Shown in pieces: positions 29,137-37,882 of a stretch of 64,000 nucleotides of DNA. Under the pieces are notes generated by a model. The model saw only the letters and a list, made by a program, of their open reading frames with translations, did no database searches and was not told the DNA's origin. Within the stretch, counting starts at the first letter, position 1. Every line of letters begins with the position of its first letter. Both the position numbers and the translations under genes were made by a program. Source of the stretch: Clostridiales bacterium (GTDB lineage: Bacteria; Bacillota; Clostridia; Caldicoprobacterales; Xylanivirgaceae); contig JAAZLT010000178.1 of NCBI GenBank assembly GCA_012799205.1, forward strand, positions 13,213 through 77,212. Direction: 5' to 3'.

Positions 29137-30474
29137 ATGAAAACTATCAATAGACAGTTTTTTATATGCATACTAATTGGCCTTTTGGCATTTGTAGTGT
29201 TCTTTGGCTTTCTATTTCATTTTCATATTTCAGATATTTTAATGGATACAAAACAAAAACAGGAAGATAGTGCATACAAAATGGCCATCCGATTAGAGGA
29301 AAAACTCCACCAATCCCGTGAATGCCTTGAGATGCTCGCCACAAATCCAGTAATAGGAGATGGCGATCCTCGATGTATAGAGGACTTGCTTACTAATATA
29401 TCAAGCCGCTCTCCCTTATACAGAGGGCTAATTGTGACTAATCATGATGGATATTTAATTGCTGAGGCACCCCAAGATTTAAAATTTAGTTGCCCAGACA
29501 TAAATAAATTACGCTCACTACTGACAAAATGCGATTTAGCCTACATAACCATTGCAGATAAAAAAGAACATGTATTTGTTAGTGCAGCGCAGGTATCTAA
29601 CCCTAAAGATAAAGGACAGATAATTATCGCATTACTAGATTTAGATTATGTCGCAGAAACTGCCATATTGGAGAATAATTCTTCCGAGATATCTATATAT
29701 ACTGGCTCTGATACTGCAAAAATTTTGTACACTCCTGAATATAGCCCGGAATCTTATCCAATTCCCGCTATTTTAAATATAATTGGACGCACAATAAAGA
29801 AAAAGGCCTCCCCCTATCTCGTGGGGACAGCCTCTATGACAAAACCAAATTGGGACATTACTATTATAAAATCCTTTGAAGCTTTTTTATACGATAGTAT
29901 GCAAACAGCTTCCTTGGGGTTTCGTTTTTTCTCGTTACTTTCATTTCCAATCCTTATTACGCTCTTATTTACGATACTAATAATTAATTTTTCTCGTAAA
30001 CATTTAAAGGAATTAGCCATTAGAGATGGCCTAACAAATCTTTACAACCATAGATTTTTCCAAACCGAATTGCGCAATATCATAAGTAGCAATAAATACA
30101 AAGAAATATCGCTGCTCATGATAGATCTGGACAATTTTAAGCTTTATAATGATTGCCATGGGCATCTAGCGGGAGATGAGGTTTTAAAGGATATTTCCCG
30201 TATTTTCGTTCAAAATATTCGAAATACAGACATTGCAGCCCGCTATGGAGGTGAAGAATTCGCCATTATTTTACCAGATGTCGGTTTAGAAGAAGCCACG
30301 AAGATTGCAGAGCGCATAAGAAAGACTATAAAATCTAATTGTCCATGTACGATTTCCATAGGGATATCTTCATTCCCAAAATATGCCTCTACCGCAGAAG
30401 AATTAATTAGTAGGGCTGATGACGCACTTTATAGAGCCAAGAATATATCAAAAGATAGAGTAGAAAAATGCTAG
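29137..30474 (+). CDS. Membrane-bound diguanylate cyclase with extracytoplasmic sensor domain
   Basis: 445 aa with TM1 at the N-terminus, a ~230-aa periplasmic-type (Cache-like?) region and TM2. The GGDEF domain has DGLTNLYNHR, the active site GGEEF and HLAGDEVL. Confidence 0.85.
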   Translation: MKTINRQFFICILIGLLAFVVFFGFLFHFHISDILMDTKQKQEDSAYKMAIRLEEKLHQSRECLEMLATNPVIGDGDPRCIEDLLTNISSRSPLYRGLIVTNHDGYLIAEAPQDLKFSCPDINKLRSLLTKCDLAYITIADKKEHVFVSAAQVSNPKDKGQIIIALLDLDYVAETAILENNSSEISIYTGSDTAKILYTPEYSPESYPIPAILNIIGRTIKKKASPYLVGTASMTKPNWDITIIKSFEAFLYDSMQTASLGFRFFSLLSFPILITLLFTILIINFSRKHLKELAIRDGLTNLYNHRFFQTELRNIISSNKYKEISLLMIDLDNFKLYNDCHGHLAGDEVLKDISRIFVQNIRNTDIAARYGGEEFAIILPDVGLEEATKIAERIRKTIKSNCPCTISIGISSFPKYASTAEELISRADDALYRAKNISKDRVEKC

Positions 30475-30547: not shown

Positions 30548-31076
30548 CTAAATCGGAAAGTATAAGTATACATTAGGAGAATAACCTTCCTTCATAAGTT
30601 CAAGATTTATAATCAGTCTACCTGTTCTGCCTTTTCCATCTACGAATGGATGTATGGATTCGAATTGCAGGTGAAACATAGCAATCCTTTCTATTAAATG
30701 CTTATTTTCTATGTTTTTCTCATATTCTTGCATTAACTGTTCCATCAATACTGGTACTAGGTATGGTTGAGGCGGCTCATGTATGGCTTCTGAAATAGTG
30801 ACCGGGAGTCGCCTATATCTTCCCTTATCTTAAGGTTTGTCCACCAAAACTATGCTCCGATAGCTTCTAGATGTTCTCTCAAAGATTTTTTATCTATTGT
30901 AACTCCCTTTTGGAACACAAGGGTGGTTTCATATAGTGTTAGGGTATTGCCCTCGATTGCATTGAAGTAATATGTAAAGTCTATTAGAAATTCATCCCTA
31001 ATCCTTTTTACTTCACCCTCAGTTAAAAGATTGTAGTCGGTCAGTTCGTTGAGCAGGTTATTTTTTTCTCAAACAT
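30548..31076 (-). pseudogene. fic: fic pseudogene (decayed copy of 27379-28125)
   Basis: It is nucleotide-level alignable to the intact fic. It has an in-frame TAA where fic has CAA (GACAAACCTTAAGA vs GACAAACCTCAAGA), an internal deletion of ~90 nt, and a replaced 3' end. The motif reads HPFVDGKGRTGR. Confidence 0.85.
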
Positions 31077-31270
31077 AAAGCTCCTCCAATTCATACATGT
31101 AAATTATCGTCAAATTATCCAAACTTTATACCTATGTTTCATTATGAAATACCTTTTAATAGCCCAGAGTTTATCAAAACAATAACAACTGATTCTAATA
31201 TCATTATAGCATGCTTAAAAGAACTATCCTGTTAAAATGGTATAAAGAATAGATTAGGAAGCTCATTCCC

Positions 31271-31298
31271 TGACTTTACAGGCAATATGTGATATAAT
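31271..31298 (+). promoter_or_regulatory. Putative extended -10 promoter of the MTase/helicase operon
   Basis: TGACTT-16 nt-TATAAT with a TGn extension (TGATATAAT at 31290-31298). It lies in a ~390-bp AT-rich non-coding stretch. Confidence 0.45.
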
Positions 31299-31469
31299 GA
31301 TACTAGTCTAGACATACAGTTCTAGAGATTTTAGTCATATACCTTTATTATTTCTGTATTAGGCAATCTAAAACCAATTTAAATTTATGATTTTAGCCTT
31401 ATATAAAATTATATACTATTTTTATTGCAAGTCATACTATATTTAAAATCCAAAAAGGAGGCTTGCCTT

Positions 31470-32135
31470 TTGGAAAAAGCAAATGAACAAATTAAATCAA
31501 GACAAAGGGTTACAGACCATGGAGAAGTTTTTACTGCCGAAAGAGAGGTCAATGCCATGCTGGATTTAGTCAAGCAAGAAACGGAAAGAATAGATAGCCG
31601 ATTTCTAGAGCCAGCGTGTGGAACAGGCAATTTCCTTGAGGAAATCCTACGGAGAAAGTTAAATGTGGTAAAAAGTAGATATTCAAAGAGTAAATCAGAT
31701 TATGAAAGATATTCCATAGTGGCTGTTACTAGTATTTATGGAGTTGATATTTTAGAAGATAATATTTTAGAATGTCGTAATCGAATGTATTCCATCCTAG
31801 AAAAACAATATAAAAAATTATGGAAAGAAGACATGGGAAAAGAATATAGTGAAGCTGTAAAATATATATTAACCAAAAATATTTTACATGGCGATGCTCT
31901 ATCTATGAAAACTCTTGACAAAAATCCAATTATATTTTCTGAATGGACTCTAGTAAGCGGGAATATGATAAAGCGTAGGGATTATCGCTTTGATGAACTA
32001 TTAGAAGGAAACCAAGATCAACGATCAGTTTTTACTATGGAGTGGGAGTATGATGAAGAGATACAAGCCTTTATCCCAGCACCCATAAAAGAATATCCTC
32101 TTGTGGACTATAGGAGGGTACAATATGCTGAATAA
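31470..32135 (+). CDS. Short DNA-methyltransferase-like protein with SAM-binding motifs but no catalytic (D/N)PPY motif
   Basis: The TTG at 31470 lies 8 nt after AAAGGAGG; the track start at 31425 has no RBS. Motifs: GEVFTAEREVNAMLDLV, motif I FLEPACGTGNFL (31605-31637), IYGVDI, NILHGDAL. There is no NPPY-type tetrapeptide. The stop overlaps the next start by 11 nt. Confidence 0.65.
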   Translation: MEKANEQIKSRQRVTDHGEVFTAEREVNAMLDLVKQETERIDSRFLEPACGTGNFLEEILRRKLNVVKSRYSKSKSDYERYSIVAVTSIYGVDILEDNILECRNRMYSILEKQYKKLWKEDMGKEYSEAVKYILTKNILHGDALSMKTLDKNPIIFSEWTLVSGNMIKRRDYRFDELLEGNQDQRSVFTMEWEYDEEIQAFIPAPIKEYPLVDYRRVQYAE

Positions 32136-33630
32136 GGATTTATATTCAAACGTGTATAATCCAGATGTTTTATCAACTTTAGCAAATTTATCAAGTGATG
32201 AGGTATTTACACCTCCCGAGATAGTAAACCAGATGTTAGACTTATTGCCAGAAGATTTATGGTCTAACCCAGAGACAACTTTTCTTGATCCCGCATGTAA
32301 ATCAGGCGTGTTTTTAAGGGAAATTGCCAAACGGTTAATTAAAAGTTTAGAGGATCAGATCCCTGAACTGCAAGAGAGATTAGACCATATTTTCCATAAA
32401 CAACTCTATGGTATTGCAATTACCGAGATTACAAGTCTACTTTCTAGACTCAGTGCATATGGTTCAAAATATGCCAATAGCATATTTTCTTTTAGCGAAT
32501 TTGATAATCCCATAGGTAATATAAAGTTTAATATTATTCCACATACTTGGGAACGTAATAAGTGTAAATACTGTGGTGCCTCAAAAGCAGAATACAAAAG
32601 AGATGACGAGTTGGAGACTCATGCATATGAGTTTATACATATAGAAAAACCAGAGGAGATATTTAAAATGAGATTTGATGTAATAATAGGTAATCCACCA
32701 TATCAACTAAGTGATGGTGGAGCTGGCGCTAGCGCTAAACCGATATATCATTTGTTTGTCGAACAGGCTATAAAGATGAACCCGAGATATTTAAGTATGA
32801 TTATACCTGCAAGATGGTATGCAGGCGGTAAGGGGCTAAATGATTTCAGGAGATTTATGTTAAATAATAATCATATTACATACTTAGTAGATTATGCTGA
32901 TTCCTCTGATTGCTTCACAGGTGTTAATATAGCTGGAGGTGTATGCTATTTTTTATGGGAAAGAGATAATGCCGGTGACTGTGAAATTATAAATATTAAA
33001 AAGAATAAAGAAAATAGAATGAAAAGGAAATTAAATGAGTTTCCCATGCTAGTCAGAGATAATATATCTGTAAAAATAATACGAAAGGTTTTAAAGTCAA
33101 CAGGTGCAGATATGACAGATATTGTTAAAGCAAGAAATCCATTTGGAATTCCTACGAATTTTATTAATAAGAATTCCAAGAAAGAGATTAAGGTATTTAC
33201 CTCAAGAGGGGAAACATGGATAAAAGAAGCAGATATTCATGATAGAGATAACATTCTAAATCGTTATAAGGTGATTACCACAAGAGCTATGTCAGGTGGC
33301 CACAAGCCTAGCTCCGATGGCGATTACATGGTATTGTCATCTTTAAGTATAATTAAACCTAAAGAGGCCTTCTCTGAAACATATTTATGTATAGGTGATT
33401 TTGAAAAAAAACAACATGCTAATAACTTGTTATCTTATGCAAGTACAAAATTTTTTAGATTTCTTTTACTGCAGGCATTAACGTCAATAAATATTACTAG
33501 ACAAAGATTTGTATTTGTTCCCCAACAAGATTTTTCCAAGTCTTGGACAGATCAAGAGCTGTATAAAAAGTATAATCTAAATCAGGAAGAGATTAGTTTT
33601 ATTGAATCAATGATTAGGCCAATGGAATAG
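32125..33630 (+). CDS. Eco57I-like (gamma-class) N6-adenine DNA methyltransferase with C-terminal target-recognition region
   Basis: ATG at 32125 after TAGGAGGG. Motifs: DEVFTPPEIVNQMLDLL, motif I LDPACKSGVFL, motif IV IIGNPPYQ (32692-32703), AKPIYHLFVEQA, ARWYAGGKGLNDFR. ~500 aa. Confidence 0.8.
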   Translation: MLNKDLYSNVYNPDVLSTLANLSSDEVFTPPEIVNQMLDLLPEDLWSNPETTFLDPACKSGVFLREIAKRLIKSLEDQIPELQERLDHIFHKQLYGIAITEITSLLSRLSAYGSKYANSIFSFSEFDNPIGNIKFNIIPHTWERNKCKYCGASKAEYKRDDELETHAYEFIHIEKPEEIFKMRFDVIIGNPPYQLSDGGAGASAKPIYHLFVEQAIKMNPRYLSMIIPARWYAGGKGLNDFRRFMLNNNHITYLVDYADSSDCFTGVNIAGGVCYFLWERDNAGDCEIINIKKNKENRMKRKLNEFPMLVRDNISVKIIRKVLKSTGADMTDIVKARNPFGIPTNFINKNSKKEIKVFTSRGETWIKEADIHDRDNILNRYKVITTRAMSGGHKPSSDGDYMVLSSLSIIKPKEAFSETYLCIGDFEKKQHANNLLSYASTKFFRFLLLQALTSINITRQRFVFVPQQDFSKSWTDQELYKKYNLNQEEISFIESMIRPME

Positions 33631-33632
33631 GG

Positions 33633-36578
33633 GTGATATTAATGACAGATAGCCAATTCTTTCCTCAACGACCAAAATATAAACCTATGATTTATGCTTA
33701 TAAAGATAGAAATTATCCCGGGCTGTTAAAAATAGGATATACAACTATAGACGTCAAAAAACGGGTAGAGCAACAATACCCTGTAATTTTACCGGATACA
33801 AAGCCTTATAAGATAGTTTTCGCCAAGCCTGCCATTCGGAATGATGGCTCTAGCTTTATGGACCATGAAATTCATAATAGGCTAAAGAAATCCAAGTTTG
33901 AAAATCCCGATGGAGAATGGTTTAAATGTAATGTAGATGAATTAAATGCAGCCTATATTTCTGTTAGAGATAGAGTAGAAAATATAGAAAATAGAACTAG
34001 AGATTTTCAAATGAGGCCAGAGCAAAAAGATGCAGTGGATAAGACCATCTCTTTCTATAGGAGTGCAAAAAGAGAATATCCTGATAGGGCCCCAAAATTT
34101 CTATGGAATGCTAAGATGAGATTTGGCAAGACTTTTGCTGCCTATCAGCTGGCTAAAAAGATAAATTTGAAGAAAATCTTAGTACTCACATTTAAACCTG
34201 CGGTTGAAAGTGCCTGGGAAGAAGACCTAATGACTCATATAGACTTTGAGGGCTGGCAGTTTATTAGTAAGAAAAACGAGTTTAGCGTAACAGATTTAGA
34301 TGAATCTAGGCCTATGGTGTGTTTTGGTTCTTTTCAAGATTTACTGGGAGTAGATAGGAATACTGGCGGAATTAAAGCAAAAAACGAGTGGATTCACACT
34401 ACTCACTGGGATATGGTTATATTCGATGAATACCATTTTGGTGCTTGGCGTGATAGTGCGCAAAAATTATTCGAAAAAGAAGATGAGGATGAATATGACT
34501 CCCTCGATATAGAAGAATATAAAGAAAGGGAAGCAGACAATGCCTATAATGAGACATTCTTGCCTATAACCACATCATATTATCTGTTTTTATCCGGAAC
34601 ACCTTTTAGAGCTATAAATTCGGGGGAATTTATAGAAGATCAGATTTTCAATTGGACGTATTCTGATGAACAAGATGCAAAAGAAAAATGGGGCAATAGG
34701 CCCGACAATCCCTACAAATCGTTGCCTAGAATGGTTATGATGACCTATAGAATGCCAGATGATATCAGGAAGATTGCTCTACAGGGAGAGTTTGATGAAT
34801 TTGATTTAAATGTGTTTTTCTCTGCAGAAGGAGAAGAGGATAATGCAAAATTCATATATGAAAATGAAGTTCAAAAATGGCTAGACTTAATAAGGGGAGC
34901 TCATCTTCCTGCAAATATTGATGATTTGAGATTGGGTAGAGATAGAAGGCCCCCTATGCCATATTCCGATGAAAGATTATTAAGTGTATTAACCCACACA
35001 TTGTGGTTTATGCCATCTGTAGCATCTGCTTATGCAATGAAAAACTTGTTACTTAAAAAACATAATACATTTTTTCATGATTACAATATAAATGTGGCCG
35101 CTGGACCTAGGGCAGGGATTGGATTAGATGCCTTGGCTCCTGTTCAAAAATCTATGGGCAACCCTTTAGAAACCAAAACTATTACATTATCTTGTGGGAA
35201 ATTAACTACAGGTGTAACTATTAGGCCCTGGACAGGTATATTTATGCTGAGAAACTTATCTAGTCCCGAAACTTATTTTCAAGCTGCATTTAGAGTGCAG
35301 AGCCCTTGGGTTGTAGATGGAGAAATGGGTAAAAAGGAAATCATGAAAGAAGAATGTTATGTATTTGATTTTGCTTTAGACAGAGCCTTGAGGCAAATAG
35401 CCGATTATAGTACAAGGTTGAATGTAGAAGAATCTGATCCCGAGATAAAGGTGGGAGAGTTTATAAAATTCCTTCCGGTGCTTGCTTACGATGGCAGTAC
35501 TATGAAACAGGTAAATGCTACAGATATATTAGATATTGCCATGGCAGGAACATCAGCAACATTATTAGCTAGAAGATGGGAAAGTGCTCTTTTGGTCAAT
35601 GTTGATAATGATACCCTTACACGACTTATGGAAAATGAAGAAGCTATGAATGCTTTAATGAGTATAGAAGGGTTTAGAAGCCTGAATAGTGATATAGAAA
35701 CCATTATCAATAAGTCTAATTCTGTAAAAAAGGCGCGTAAAGAAGGAGAGGATTTAAGTACTAAGGAAAAAAGGGAGCTTACTAAAGAGGAGAGAGAATA
35801 TAAAACCCTACGTAAAGAAGTCCAGGAAAAGCTTATTAAGTTTGCTACAAGGATCCCTATTTTCATGTATCTTACTGATTATAGGGAGAAGTCTTTGAGA
35901 GATGTAATAACTCAGTTAGAACCTGGATTATTTAAAAAAGTAACAGGCTTAAATGTTAGAGATTTCGAACTTTTAGTATCTCTAGGTGTATTTAATGGTC
36001 CCTTGATGAATGATGCAGTTTATAAATTTAAAAGGTATGAGGATGCGAGTCTAGAATATACAGGTATCAATAAGCACAAGGACATGGATATAGGTCTTTG
36101 GGATACAGTAATAAGTCCCGACGATTACGAGAATATGTTTAGGATGCAACAGGCCTCTCTGGGGGTCTCAGTTATGAGATCGGAAATAGATAATGAAATA
36201 CGCAAAACCATAGAAGACAAAGAAGAAATAAAAAATGGAAAAGGTCATAATGCAAAAATCCACGATATCAAAATTAAGGATACTATCAGTATAAATAGAA
36301 ACAATAAACATAAGCAAAATATGGGCCAATTAAAAGCTGCGGAAGATTCGGAAAAAGAATTATCTAATAAAAAGACTAAAGCAAGATTAGGGAATGACAC
36401 AATAGATTATACTGAAATTATCAGCAACGGTGATACAGTAGAGCACAATAAGTTTGGAAAAGGAATAGTTATGGCTATAGACAAAGAAAATAACCGCATT
36501 ACAATTAAGTTTAAATTCGGAGAGAAGATGTTTATATTTCCCAAGACTTTTGAAAATGGTTTCTTAATGGTAAAATAG
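33633..36578 (+). CDS. T5orf172/GIY-YIG-like nuclease domain fused to SF2 (ResIII/DEAH-type) helicase, with Tudor-like C-terminal tail; putative restriction/defence effector
   Basis: N-domain (aa ~18-110): MIYAYKDRNYPGLLKIGYTT..KKRVEQ..DHEIHNRL..DGEWFKC. Helicase: Walker A RFGKTFAA (34125), DEYH (34425-34436), LSGTPF, QAAFRVQSP. C-terminus: GDTVEHNKFGKGIVMAIDKENNRITIKFKFGEKMF. The true start may be the ATG at 33642 (GGGGTG RBS). Confidence 0.7.
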   Translation: MILMTDSQFFPQRPKYKPMIYAYKDRNYPGLLKIGYTTIDVKKRVEQQYPVILPDTKPYKIVFAKPAIRNDGSSFMDHEIHNRLKKSKFENPDGEWFKCNVDELNAAYISVRDRVENIENRTRDFQMRPEQKDAVDKTISFYRSAKREYPDRAPKFLWNAKMRFGKTFAAYQLAKKINLKKILVLTFKPAVESAWEEDLMTHIDFEGWQFISKKNEFSVTDLDESRPMVCFGSFQDLLGVDRNTGGIKAKNEWIHTTHWDMVIFDEYHFGAWRDSAQKLFEKEDEDEYDSLDIEEYKEREADNAYNETFLPITTSYYLFLSGTPFRAINSGEFIEDQIFNWTYSDEQDAKEKWGNRPDNPYKSLPRMVMMTYRMPDDIRKIALQGEFDEFDLNVFFSAEGEEDNAKFIYENEVQKWLDLIRGAHLPANIDDLRLGRDRRPPMPYSDERLLSVLTHTLWFMPSVASAYAMKNLLLKKHNTFFHDYNINVAAGPRAGIGLDALAPVQKSMGNPLETKTITLSCGKLTTGVTIRPWTGIFMLRNLSSPETYFQAAFRVQSPWVVDGEMGKKEIMKEECYVFDFALDRALRQIADYSTRLNVEESDPEIKVGEFIKFLPVLAYDGSTMKQVNATDILDIAMAGTSATLLARRWESALLVNVDNDTLTRLMENEEAMNALMSIEGFRSLNSDIETIINKSNSVKKARKEGEDLSTKEKRELTKEEREYKTLRKEVQEKLIKFATRIPIFMYLTDYREKSLRDVITQLEPGLFKKVTGLNVRDFELLVSLGVFNGPLMNDAVYKFKRYEDASLEYTGINKHKDMDIGLWDTVISPDDYENMFRMQQASLGVSVMRSEIDNEIRKTIEDKEEIKNGKGHNAKIHDIKIKDTISINRNNKHKQNMGQLKAAEDSEKELSNKKTKARLGNDTIDYTEIISNGDTVEHNKFGKGIVMAIDKENNRITIKFKFGEKMFIFPKTFENGFLMVK

Positions 36579-36771
36579 GTTATCCATATATTGTCTCATA
36601 TATATTCTATAGAGGGGCAATTTGGCTATTATCATGAATTAGTATAATAACTACCCTATCAAAATACGCCAATACACAAAATTATTTGCACACCCTGTTT
36701 TTACTGAGTAAGACAAGATGCCAGTTAAAAGATGTTTGTCTTGATTTTCACAGGGTGAATATCAAGAAATA

Positions 36772-36820
36772 AAAATCATGAAATCTCGATTATGTTCTCA
36801 TGATATTTCATGATTTTTTT
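36772..36820 (+). terminator. Stem-loop with T7 run ~190 nt after the helicase gene (probable operon terminator, potentially bidirectional)
   Basis: AAAATCATGAAAT-N20-ATTTCATGATTTT followed by TTT. Confidence 0.5.
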
Positions 36821-37261
36821 CGCCTTTGAGATAACATGCAACTATTTTTTCTCTAGCGTCTACTCTTTTATTGCTTTCCCAGTAAGATTATTTCTGATTT
36901 TATTCATATCTTTGGGGTTAGATGACCCTTGTCTAATGCACCCGAAGTTTTTCTATACCATAAAAGAGCTCGCCCGTTCGCCCATACTTTATAGGTTTCA
37001 AATAATCATTCTACTTCACTAAAATCTACTCCCATAATTACCTCCTCGGTAATTACTGCCATATCATCCTAGGCATCCATGAAATCTTCAACTGTGCTGT
37101 ATTTTGTTCCTGATATGATTTTAGTCAAAGGATCTAATGCACTGTATGTTACCTATATAAATATTCCCATCTGTTATTATATCTCATCCCCATCTATACC
37201 TAATTCTTTCAATAATTCTTTCTGCTAATAAATCACTATCAAATGCTACTAGTGTCTGATA

Positions 37262-37882
37262 TCATTCATCATCTATTATAAGTCCATGGATACAATTATC
37301 ATATATAAAACTATCTATCTCACTGTAATTCCCCGTATTGTAAAACTTACTTAGGCGTATGTTAAATTCTTGTATATATTTTTCGGGTATGCTTAAGACT
37401 CCCTTGCCCCTGCTTATTAAAATCTTATTAGCTCCTAAAGTAGAAATCCTTTTATTCCCATTCCAAAATAGCCGACTTCTCATTCCCCATAAAAAATATC
37501 TGATAGCTCTCTCTGTGACATTTTCAATATCAAGAATGTTGTTTATCTCTTCTAAAACATATTCTCTCTTAGGAACAGGTGGAACATAATCTACGCCTGA
37601 TATGGATATTCTTCCATTTCTCAACACGCCCCATTCGAGGCTCCCATTTCTTGATACATAGTAATTGAGCTTGCATATAAATTCTAGATTGAATTCTTTT
37701 TCTATATTAGAAAAGAGATATCTCCAAGCATCCCTTAAGTTTAATATAACTTCCACGTCATCCATCTTAAGATTTGCCACACTTACTCCATCAAGAATAG
37801 TTTTTGTATCTGAAAAGGTTACATTACACCCCTCTAGCCTAGCACTATTATATATACTCTCTACAATCAGTTTTTTGGCCAA
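37262..37882 (-). CDS. Fic/Doc-family protein with degenerate active-site motif
   Basis: 206 aa. The N-terminal SARLEG matches the inhibitory (S/T)xxxE(G/N) motif. The core reads RLFWNGNKRIST, which has a Doc-like GNKR but no catalytic His of HxFx(D/E)GN(G/K)R. Confidence 0.6.
   Translation of the reverse strand: MAKKLIVESIYNSARLEGCNVTFSDTKTILDGVSVANLKMDDVEVILNLRDAWRYLFSNIEKEFNLEFICKLNYYVSRNGSLEWGVLRNGRISISGVDYVPPVPKREYVLEEINNILDIENVTERAIRYFLWGMRSRLFWNGNKRISTLGANKILISRGKGVLSIPEKYIQEFNIRLSKFYNTGNYSEIDSFIYDNCIHGLIIDDE

Follow-up and report, generated by a model that had tools for sequence, protein, structure and literature searches.

The question raised by this locus is whether a three-gene operon of a Clostridiales bacterium, here called g1-g2-g3, encodes an ATP-dependent restriction-modification (R-M) system and, if so, of which kind. 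The window, that is, the whole stretch of 64,000 nucleotides of contig JAAZLT010000178.1 that was analysed, carries the operon on its plus strand at 31470-36578. ATP-dependent restriction enzymes are understood mechanistically from few families, those of the Type I, ISP, III, CglI and SauUSI types. We consider it probable (roughly 0.7) that the operon encodes a split ATP-dependent R-M system, with a predicted methyltransferase (g2) and a predicted nuclease-translocase (g3) on separate chains and a half-methyltransferase (g1) as a third component. As judged from sequence comparison, it appears to be an intact member of a very widespread, biochemically unstudied family of ATP-dependent R-M-like systems. 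The best reading is that the system resembles Type ISP in parts, yet lies outside Types I, ISP, III and IIG.

Three full-length, coupled genes

The first-pass annotation of this DNA had described three plus-strand genes, the first two overlapping by 11 nt and the last two separated by at most 11 nt. Open reading frame (ORF) analysis of the window recovered exactly this arrangement; all three ORFs are full-length and translationally coupled (lengths in amino acids, aa):

31470-32135, plus strand: g1, 221 aa, TTG start at 31470
32125-33630, plus strand: g2, 501 aa, ATG start at 32125
33633/33642-36578, plus strand: g3, 981 aa from GTG at 33633 or 978 aa from ATG at 33642

The first 11 nt of g2 are also the last 11 nt of g1, and g3 starts 2-11 nt past the g2 stop codon, depending on the start used. 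An AGGAGG sequence is found 8 nt 5' of the TTG start of g1. The GC skew turns positive over exactly the g1-g2-g3 block.

The methyltransferase g2

The product of g2 is identical to database protein P0391 and matches the Pfam families Eco57I (PF07669, E 3.9e-39) and N6_Mtase (1.9e-9). Motifs X and I lie at aa 26-64 and FDVIIGNPPYQ at aa 184-194; motif I (FLDPACKSGVFL) and GNPPYQ were both confirmed, and motif I resembles that of the active enzyme M.TaqI (EPACAHGPFL). The motif order X, I, IV, followed by a C-terminal variable region, is that of the gamma class. The Eco57I match, the motifs and this variable region together uphold the initial description of g2 as a gamma-class N6-adenine methyltransferase with a putative target-recognition domain (TRD). 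Two regions of the protein deserve separate mention:

32542-32640 (aa 140-172), plus strand: zinc-site-like insertion between motifs III and IV
32965-33444 (aa 281-440), plus strand: variable region, putative TRD, marked by a drop in identity among orthologues

Comparison of g2 with nine orthologues showed a catalytic part that is about 70% identical, a segment (aa 281-440) with only 23-38% identity, and a last stretch of 60 residues that is conserved again. Variability confined to this segment beside a conserved catalytic part is the pattern of diversifying specificity expected of a TRD. The variable region also aligns with the C-terminal part of REBASE-derived methyltransferase profiles in PADLOC.

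Across 121 g2 orthologues, four residues of the zinc-site-like insertion (H140, C147, C150 and H172) never vary. The position of the usual motif II acid is occupied by Ala or Ser in all 121, and a conserved Glu is found three residues further on in 120 of them.

The nuclease-translocase candidate g3

Full-length relatives of g3 are abundant: the best 120 of at least 8000 share 62-78% identity with it, and proteins from Clostridiales, Thermincola, Anaerolineaceae and Fastidiosipila are among them. Four regions can be distinguished:

33681-33953 (aa 17-107), plus strand: T5orf172 domain of the GIY-YIG superfamily (Pfam T5orf172 5e-11, MUG113 4e-7)
34005-35432 (about aa 125-600), plus strand: superfamily 2 (SF2) ATPase/translocase core (Pfam ResIII 8e-7)
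35433-36122 (about aa 600-830), plus strand: conserved helical C-terminal region, 63-81% identity to orthologues
36420-36575 (aa 930-981), plus strand: small beta domain, Tudor-like, five strands, with a predicted local distance difference test score (pLDDT) of about 85

The fusion of a T5orf172 domain to an SF2 motor, which had been proposed from the letters of the sequence, is borne out by these Pfam matches and by the presence of GKT, DEYH, SGTP and QAAFRVQSP. In the N-terminal domain, an alignment of 40 sequences revealed Y21 and Y23 (IYAY), K33, G35 and T37 (KIGYT), R44 and E95 as invariant, and the AlphaFold2 (AF2) model of this domain has a pLDDT of 80-88. The N-terminus of g3 thus appears to carry the GIY-YIG strands together with equivalents of the catalytic Arg and Glu (R44 and E95), which makes it a putative nuclease. 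The motor contains Walker A GKT (165-167), DEYH (265-268), SGTP (321-324) and QAAFRVQ (550-556), and in the same alignment GKT, DEYH, SGTP and QxxFRVQ are all invariant. Foldseek placed Snf2/Rad54-type double-stranded DNA (dsDNA) translocases at the top of the matches (E 4e-8, with low template-modelling (TM) scores), and EcoR124I HsdR (rank 43) and SauUSI lower in the list. No Type I or Type III restriction-subunit model of PADLOC or NCBIfam matched g3, and no recognisable recognition domain was found in it.

The region at about aa 600-830 partly aligns with the stretch that precedes the methyltransferase module in a fused PADLOC profile (see below), and is a candidate docking or coupler region for the methyltransferase. 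The Tudor-like tail of the first-pass annotation was recovered in part: the five-stranded beta domain is confidently modelled, but its match to Pfam PcrA_UvrD_tudor (0.005) falls below the cut-off, and matches to profiles of the UvrD/PcrA C-terminal domain reach only E ~0.8. The domain weakly resembles the RNA-polymerase-binding Tudor domain of PcrA/UvrD. It is preceded by a variable linker and is missing in the ~850-aa orthologues of Rhizobium, Desulfovibrionaceae and Limisphaerales.

The half-methyltransferase g1

The g1 product is identical to a database protein named ‘SAM-dependent DNA methyltransferase' (P0121) from a Clostridiales metagenome-assembled genome (MAG); SAM denotes S-adenosylmethionine. 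It retains motifs X (HGEVFT), I (FLEPACGTGNFL), II (YGVD) and III (GDAL). Motif III is followed by a small beta module starting with PIIFSEW, and the sequence stops before strand 4; g1 has neither motif IV (NPPY) nor a TRD. It is paralogous to the N-terminal half of g2 (35% identity over 91 aa, E 1e-8). Its earlier description as a short methyltransferase paralogue lacking the catalytic motif is therefore accurate.

Motif conservation was scored over 114 diverse representatives of the g1 family. E47, C50, G51 and F55 are unchanged in every one of them and G53 in 113; as the motif II acid, each of the 114 has either D or E. The AF2 model of g1 (pLDDT 77) has as its best match in the PDB the N-terminal half of the adenine methyltransferase CamA (probability 0.99); LlaBIII is found at rank 20 (probability 0.33).

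An exhaustive search with g1 returned 477 clusters (50% identity) at E <= 1e-30, and nearly all of the best 150 are stand-alone proteins of ~210-290 aa. The possibility that g1 is a pseudogene fragment was rejected on this ground, since g1 belongs to a conserved stand-alone family. A g1-like gene precedes every intact relative of the system that we examined, split or fused, and the literature yielded no described counterpart of this subunit. On sequence evidence, g1 appears to be a universally co-inherited SAM-binding half-methyltransferase, and it is the most original element of the system.

Gene linkage and distribution

Each of the three proteins has relatives in at least 8000 database clusters. 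The order g1-g2-g3 is kept in 12 of 14 distinct related loci with enough upstream sequence, which come from at least six phyla. Operons of this order with overlapping junctions were found in Thermincola, in one further genome, on a Rhizobium phaseoli plasmid and on three further long contigs. The trio also occurs in MAGs, two of them from Clostridiales and one each from Desulfovibrionaceae, Limisphaerales, Prevotellaceae and Tissierellaceae. A scan of contigs by exact peptide patterns yielded 8 loci only. Both exceptions to the conserved order look degraded: one locus (L001) has g3 plus only the last 61 codons of g2, and the other, on a Corynebacterium plasmid (L015), has no g1 or g2 match beside g3. 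The first-pass annotation had named separation of the three genes in other genomes as a finding that would speak against a system; the trio was instead found together across phyla.

Related loci often lie beside other defence genes, which places them in a defence-island context. In Thermincola, a RhuM gene stands between the g2 and g3 homologues (L002-L004, 4932-6008). Gabija-like OLD-TOPRIM and UvrD genes adjoin a homologous operon (L002, 8996-11055), and a RelB/YafQ pair is also a neighbour. Another homologous operon is adjoined by DarT with an ADP-ribosylglycohydrolase-family gene (DarTG-like), UvrD and DUF4357 (L021, 8940-13506). Homologues of g3 are also present in a few records of a phage collection, mostly from human faeces. 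Cultured carriers include Rhizobium phaseoli N671 (plasmid pRphaN671a), Facklamia sp. P12934, E. faecium E6055 (plasmid 2) and L. cremoris 1196 (p1196B). Public annotation gives the family generic names.

Some loci have a small helix-turn-helix (HTH) gene ahead of g1, which the window lacks. A conserved upstream HTH controller was considered as a core part of the system and rejected on account of this distribution.

Fused relatives and hybrid methyltransferases

PADLOC upheld the view that g3 is no ordinary Type I or Type III restriction subunit and added a new element, since g2 and g3 both match a single fused profile. This profile, PDLC03626, is REBASE-derived, bears the label ‘Type IIG restriction enzyme-methyltransferase' and has 1359 positions. 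Residues 121-763 of g3 align to its positions 152-801 (E 4e-32) and residues 26-508 of g2 to its positions 862-1359 (E 5e-51). Because the two proteins align to consecutive parts of the profile, a fused form of the system is already on record. Although a Type IIG label would mean a single-chain enzyme that works without ATP, PDLC03626 contains a helicase module; at its N-terminus, the profile did not align with the T5orf172 domain of g3. The fused form is thus catalogued under a misleading label, and the system in the window is a variant rather than something categorically new.

Complete fused proteins were identified by tblastn of plasmids: one of 1446 aa on Enterococcus faecium plasmids and one of 1456 aa on Lactococcus plasmids. 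ResIII and Eco57I are present in both, the domain order being nuclease, helicase, methyltransferase, TRD, and each is preceded by a g1 homologue of 230-250 aa (37% identity). The family appears, from these sequences, to occur in both split and single-chain forms, the single-chain form having the domain order of Type ISP. At its N-terminus, the Enterococcus protein can be aligned with the part of g3 that holds T5orf172. In the Lactococcus protein, an HsdR-type domain (NF008521, 1.5e-24) takes the place of T5orf172. No other comparative argument for the g3 T5orf172 domain as the cleavage module is as strong as this exchange of an HsdR-type for a T5orf172 domain N-terminal to the motor. The fused relatives have no acid near the g2 motif II position; in their small partners the motifs are still canonical. 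When g1, g2, g3, a g3 profile and the fused Lactococcus protein were searched by sequence against the PDB, nothing useful was returned.

A further group of relatives consists of single-chain ‘hybrid' methyltransferases of 500-580 aa (P0279, P0331, P0332, P0341 and P0374). Their N-terminal half is of the g1 type, including the PIIFSEW module, and their C-terminal half is of the g2 type from FDVIIGNPPY onwards; three different junction points were observed. The zinc-site-like insertion of g2 is absent from them. Only P0279 (L018, 276-1778) has usable genomic context: no g3-like gene lies downstream, and a serine recombinase is nearby. The hybrids indicate that a g1-type N-terminal half and a g2-type C-terminal half can form one enzyme.

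Proposed mechanism and competing explanations

If the operon encodes a split ATP-dependent R-M system, as we favour, g2 would bind a short, probably asymmetric site and methylate the DNA of the host. Where incoming DNA is unmethylated at such a site, g2 would recruit or activate g3, probably through aa 600-830 of g3 and the conserved N-terminus of g2, two regions that the fused forms join covalently. ATP hydrolysis by g3 would then bring about DNA translocation or looping, and its N-terminal GIY-YIG-type domain would cut away from the site, as Type ISP and Type I enzymes do. The part of g1 would be to bind SAM and either to complete or activate the methyltransferase or to make the decision for methylation or for restriction depend on the SAM that is available. 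As for T5orf172, it is a branch of the GIY-YIG endonuclease superfamily, and in phage ICP1 the T5orf172 protein Gp88, a reported origin-directed nuclease, keeps the catalytic Arg and Glu (PMC8263062).

Several points weigh against this proposal. Some T5orf172 domains reportedly serve to bind DNA and not to cut it; the title of one paper (PMC8096241) terms a phage-satellite protein a ‘domesticated endonuclease'. The AF2 model of whole g3 is poor (pLDDT 55; predicted TM score, pTM, 0.33), so that the translocase assignment rests on motifs, weak Pfam matches and low-TM Foldseek matches. Sequence searches detected no link of LlaGI or LlaBIII to g2, to g3 and its profile or to the fused protein from Lactococcus. 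Our literature search brought up no experiments on the family, be it a methylation motif, a cleavage assay or protection against phages. Finally, the DnmA-YeeB-YeeC cluster of Bacillus subtilis, which has a similar parts list, gave neither restriction nor phage protection (PMC9973331).

Two alternatives would dispense with cleavage altogether. In BREX-like exclusion, the methyltransferase would mark self, and a motor with a T5orf172 domain that only binds DNA would block the replication of unmodified DNA. Weak matches of g2 to PglX models (PADLOC/NCBIfam) point in this direction, as do the T5orf172 domains reported to bind DNA and the finding that the DnmA motif is not depleted in phage genomes, from which its authors infer a mechanism unlike canonical R-M (PMC9973331). 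Yet none of the 40 aligned sequences deviates at R44, E95 or either Tyr, a fused homologue has a bona fide HsdR-type nuclease domain where g3 has T5orf172, and the operon has no PglZ, BrxC or BrxL-like partner; we regard exclusion of this kind as very unlikely. We give similarly little credence to the idea that the operon is a relic, in which g2 survives as an orphan methyltransferase with an epigenetic regulatory role while g1 and g3 have ceased to restrict, a fate proposed for DnmA-YeeB-YeeC in B. subtilis. That precedent (PMC9973331), the degraded copies L001 and L015 and the decayed Fic gene that adjoins the window copy would suit a relic. The three ORFs in the window, however, are full-length with every residue that is invariant in their families, their junctions are still translationally coupled, and the full-length g3 relatives at 62-78% identity imply continuing selection on all parts.

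A different question is posed by g1, and here the alternative concerns the division of labour within the system. The N-terminal half of g2 may have drifted, with g1 supplying the functional SAM-binding half of a two-chain methyltransferase; methylation, and perhaps licensing of the nuclease, would then need a g1-g2 complex that acts as a SAM checkpoint. The retained motifs of g1 (motifs I-III are nearly invariant) and the lost motif II acid of g2, which is missing from the orthologues and the fused relatives alike, suggest complementary specialisation, with SAM binding in g1 and the catalytic loop and recognition in g2; the hybrid methyltransferases join the same two halves. Against this, g2 still has motif X and a motif I like that of TaqI, its conserved Glu three residues past the lost acid could still bind SAM, and its fold is already complete, so that it is hard to see how g1 would complement it. 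On this balance we think an obligate two-chain enzyme with a SAM checkpoint unlikely, and the narrower hypothesis that g2 has lost SAM binding and is complemented by g1, drawn from motif patterns, is hardly less doubtful. We also advance, tentatively and as something short of an expectation, that g1 may define a distinct R-M class. Its hallmark would be a catalytically dead SAM-binding half-methyltransferase as an obligatory third subunit, which would either complete a naturally two-chain gamma N6-adenine methyltransferase with a large subunit deprived of part of its cofactor site or, as a SAM sensor, gate a translocating GIY-YIG nuclease, and the class would comprise split and single-polypeptide forms.

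Regulatory signals and flanking genes

Around the operon, the following features were recognised:

30548-31083, minus strand: disrupted Fic pseudogene (Pfam Fic 2.9e-13 on a 66-aa ORF)
31270-31298, plus strand: promoter-like site, CTGACT, 17-nt spacer and TG-extended TATAAT; function inferred
31449-31474, plus strand: 9-bp hairpin spanning the AGGAGG and TTG start of g1 (RNAfold -7.7 kcal/mol)
36771-36826, plus strand: terminator-like AT-rich hairpin followed by a T-run (inverted repeat I9)
37262-37882, minus strand: 206-aa ORF with a sub-threshold Fic/DOC match (E 9.6e-4, 20.4 bits against a cut-off of 24)

The extended -10 element noted upstream in the first-pass annotation does exist at 31270-31298. 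It is the best plus-strand match, with 10 of 12 positions, and the only one among the top matches with TG before the -10; promoter-like sites in the region are nevertheless no commoner than chance (31 observed versus 31.8 expected). By sequestering AGGAGG and TTG, the hairpin at 31449-31474 may keep translation of g1 low. Downstream, the stem with a T-run reported earlier proved real: the stem at 36771-36818 has 17-nt arms that are 94% complementary, and RNAfold gave -17.5 kcal/mol for 36760-36830. In the 3' untranslated region before this hairpin, a long imperfect inverted repeat (CACCCTG ... CAGGGTG, with inner AGACAA/TTGTCT) was seen by eye at 36680-36760; it has no Rfam match. No Rfam elements were detected in the operon flanks, no silent TRD cassettes or phase-variation repeats in the window, and no convincing flanking direct repeats as marks of insertion.

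The picture of the neighbourhood needs some correction. The operon had been said to run head-on against surrounding minus-strand genes, but the gene directly upstream of it, a GGDEF gene at 29137-30474, is also on the plus strand, so that not all neighbours are opposed. Part of the upstream DNA taken for non-coding (30548-31083) is the disrupted Fic pseudogene and not plain spacer. Its N-terminal part (...FNAIEGNTLTLYETTL...LEAIGA) terminates at a stop codon, and the Fic motif HPFVDGKGRTGR resumes in a different frame as the 66-aa ORF. As to flanking by Fic-family genes on both sides, the upstream one is real, though disrupted, while the Fic/DOC match of the downstream ORF stays below threshold.

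Published descriptions and significance

Uncharacterised R-M relatives with a helicase and GIY-YIG are noted by Morgan et al. 2009 (PMC2731913) and in a 2012 paper on Type ISP (PMC3553950). In a paper on programmed inversions (PMC9881135), annotations of neighbouring genes match the public names of g1 and g3 relatives and of RhuM; the system itself is not described there. We found no paper on the exact g1-g2-g3 trio and no biochemical study of the family, and for the pairing of a GIY-YIG-type nuclease with a dsDNA motor the literature search returned no R-M biochemistry. The first-pass annotation had put the operon forward as a candidate for an undescribed or poorly described defence system. 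No study of the trio was found, but ‘undescribed' is too strong for a family that is very large and whose fused form is catalogued.

The family seems to be among the commoner uncharacterised ATP-dependent restriction families, spread over many phyla and also plasmids under mislabelled or generic names. Once its rules of recognition, methylation and cleavage are defined, annotation of defence systems would improve, and methylome motifs without an assigned enzyme would be accounted for. It would also become clear from g1 how a module that binds SAM is put to new use in a regulatory or complementing subunit.

Comparison with known systems

The operon had been judged to fit no established R-M class cleanly, and this judgement stands: it was compared with Types I, ISP, III and IIG by their defining features, and it departs from each type in some of these. 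In its proposed mode of action it comes closest to Type ISP, or to a hybrid of Types I and III.

With Type III systems (EcoP15I type) it shares a separate, Mod-like methyltransferase with a TRD and a Res-like SF2 ATPase-nuclease without a recognition domain, and ResIII matches g3. Mod, however, is of the beta class with an internal TRD, whereas g2 is of the gamma class with a C-terminal TRD; the Res nuclease is a C-terminal PD-(D/E)xK domain, whereas that of g3 is N-terminal and GIY-YIG-like. No Type III model of PADLOC was matched.

The likeness to Type I lies in a nuclease N-terminal to an SF2 motor, as in HsdR, in a gamma-class methyltransferase and in the HsdR-type N-terminal domain of one fused relative (Lactococcus). 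RhuM or Fic genes can also sit inside Type I loci (PMC9881135). By contrast, the TRD lies within the methyltransferase, no HsdS gene with two TRDs is present in the operon or in 12 related loci, and g3 matches no HsdR model (PADLOC, NCBIfam). Type IIG/IIL enzymes (Eco57I, MmeI) have in common with g2 the Eco57I-type gamma methyltransferase catalytic domain. These enzymes, however, combine nuclease and methyltransferase on a single chain and need neither ATP nor a helicase, whereas g2 has no nuclease domain and an SF2 motor with intact Walker A and DEYH is present.

By parts list, the nearest described cluster is DnmA(YeeA)-YeeB-YeeC, which combines a gamma methyltransferase without a nuclease of its own, a helicase and T5orf172, and which is likewise a conserved operon of defence islands. 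It was predicted in 2009 to be an R-M-like system with an ATP-dependent helicase and GIY-YIG (PMC2731913), and for its homologues in Vibrio crassostreae an effect on phage sensitivity, in the sense of protection, is reported (PMC9973331). The two systems are set apart by gene sizes, gene order and the published description (PMC9973331, PMC2731913). In DnmA-YeeB-YeeC, helicase and T5orf172 reside in two proteins and T5orf172 lies at the C-terminus, whereas here the domain is fused to the N-terminus of the motor; the methyltransferase is MmeI-like and of ~880 aa, against the 501-aa Eco57I-type g2; and no small g1-like gene is described.

Type ISP enzymes (LlaGI, LlaBIII) differ in being single polypeptides, whereas the system in the window has three ORFs with the methyltransferase gene before the motor gene, and fusion is seen in distant relatives only. 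Their nuclease is an N-terminal PD-(D/E)xK domain of the Mrr type and that of g3 is T5orf172/GIY-YIG-like, and the conserved half-methyltransferase g1 is an extra component. The inventory is otherwise the same, namely a nuclease, an SF2 ATPase, a gamma N6-adenine methyltransferase and a TRD, here distributed over two chains, and in the fused g3-g2 relatives, which are encoded on plasmids of lactic acid bacteria, the domains follow precisely the ISP order.

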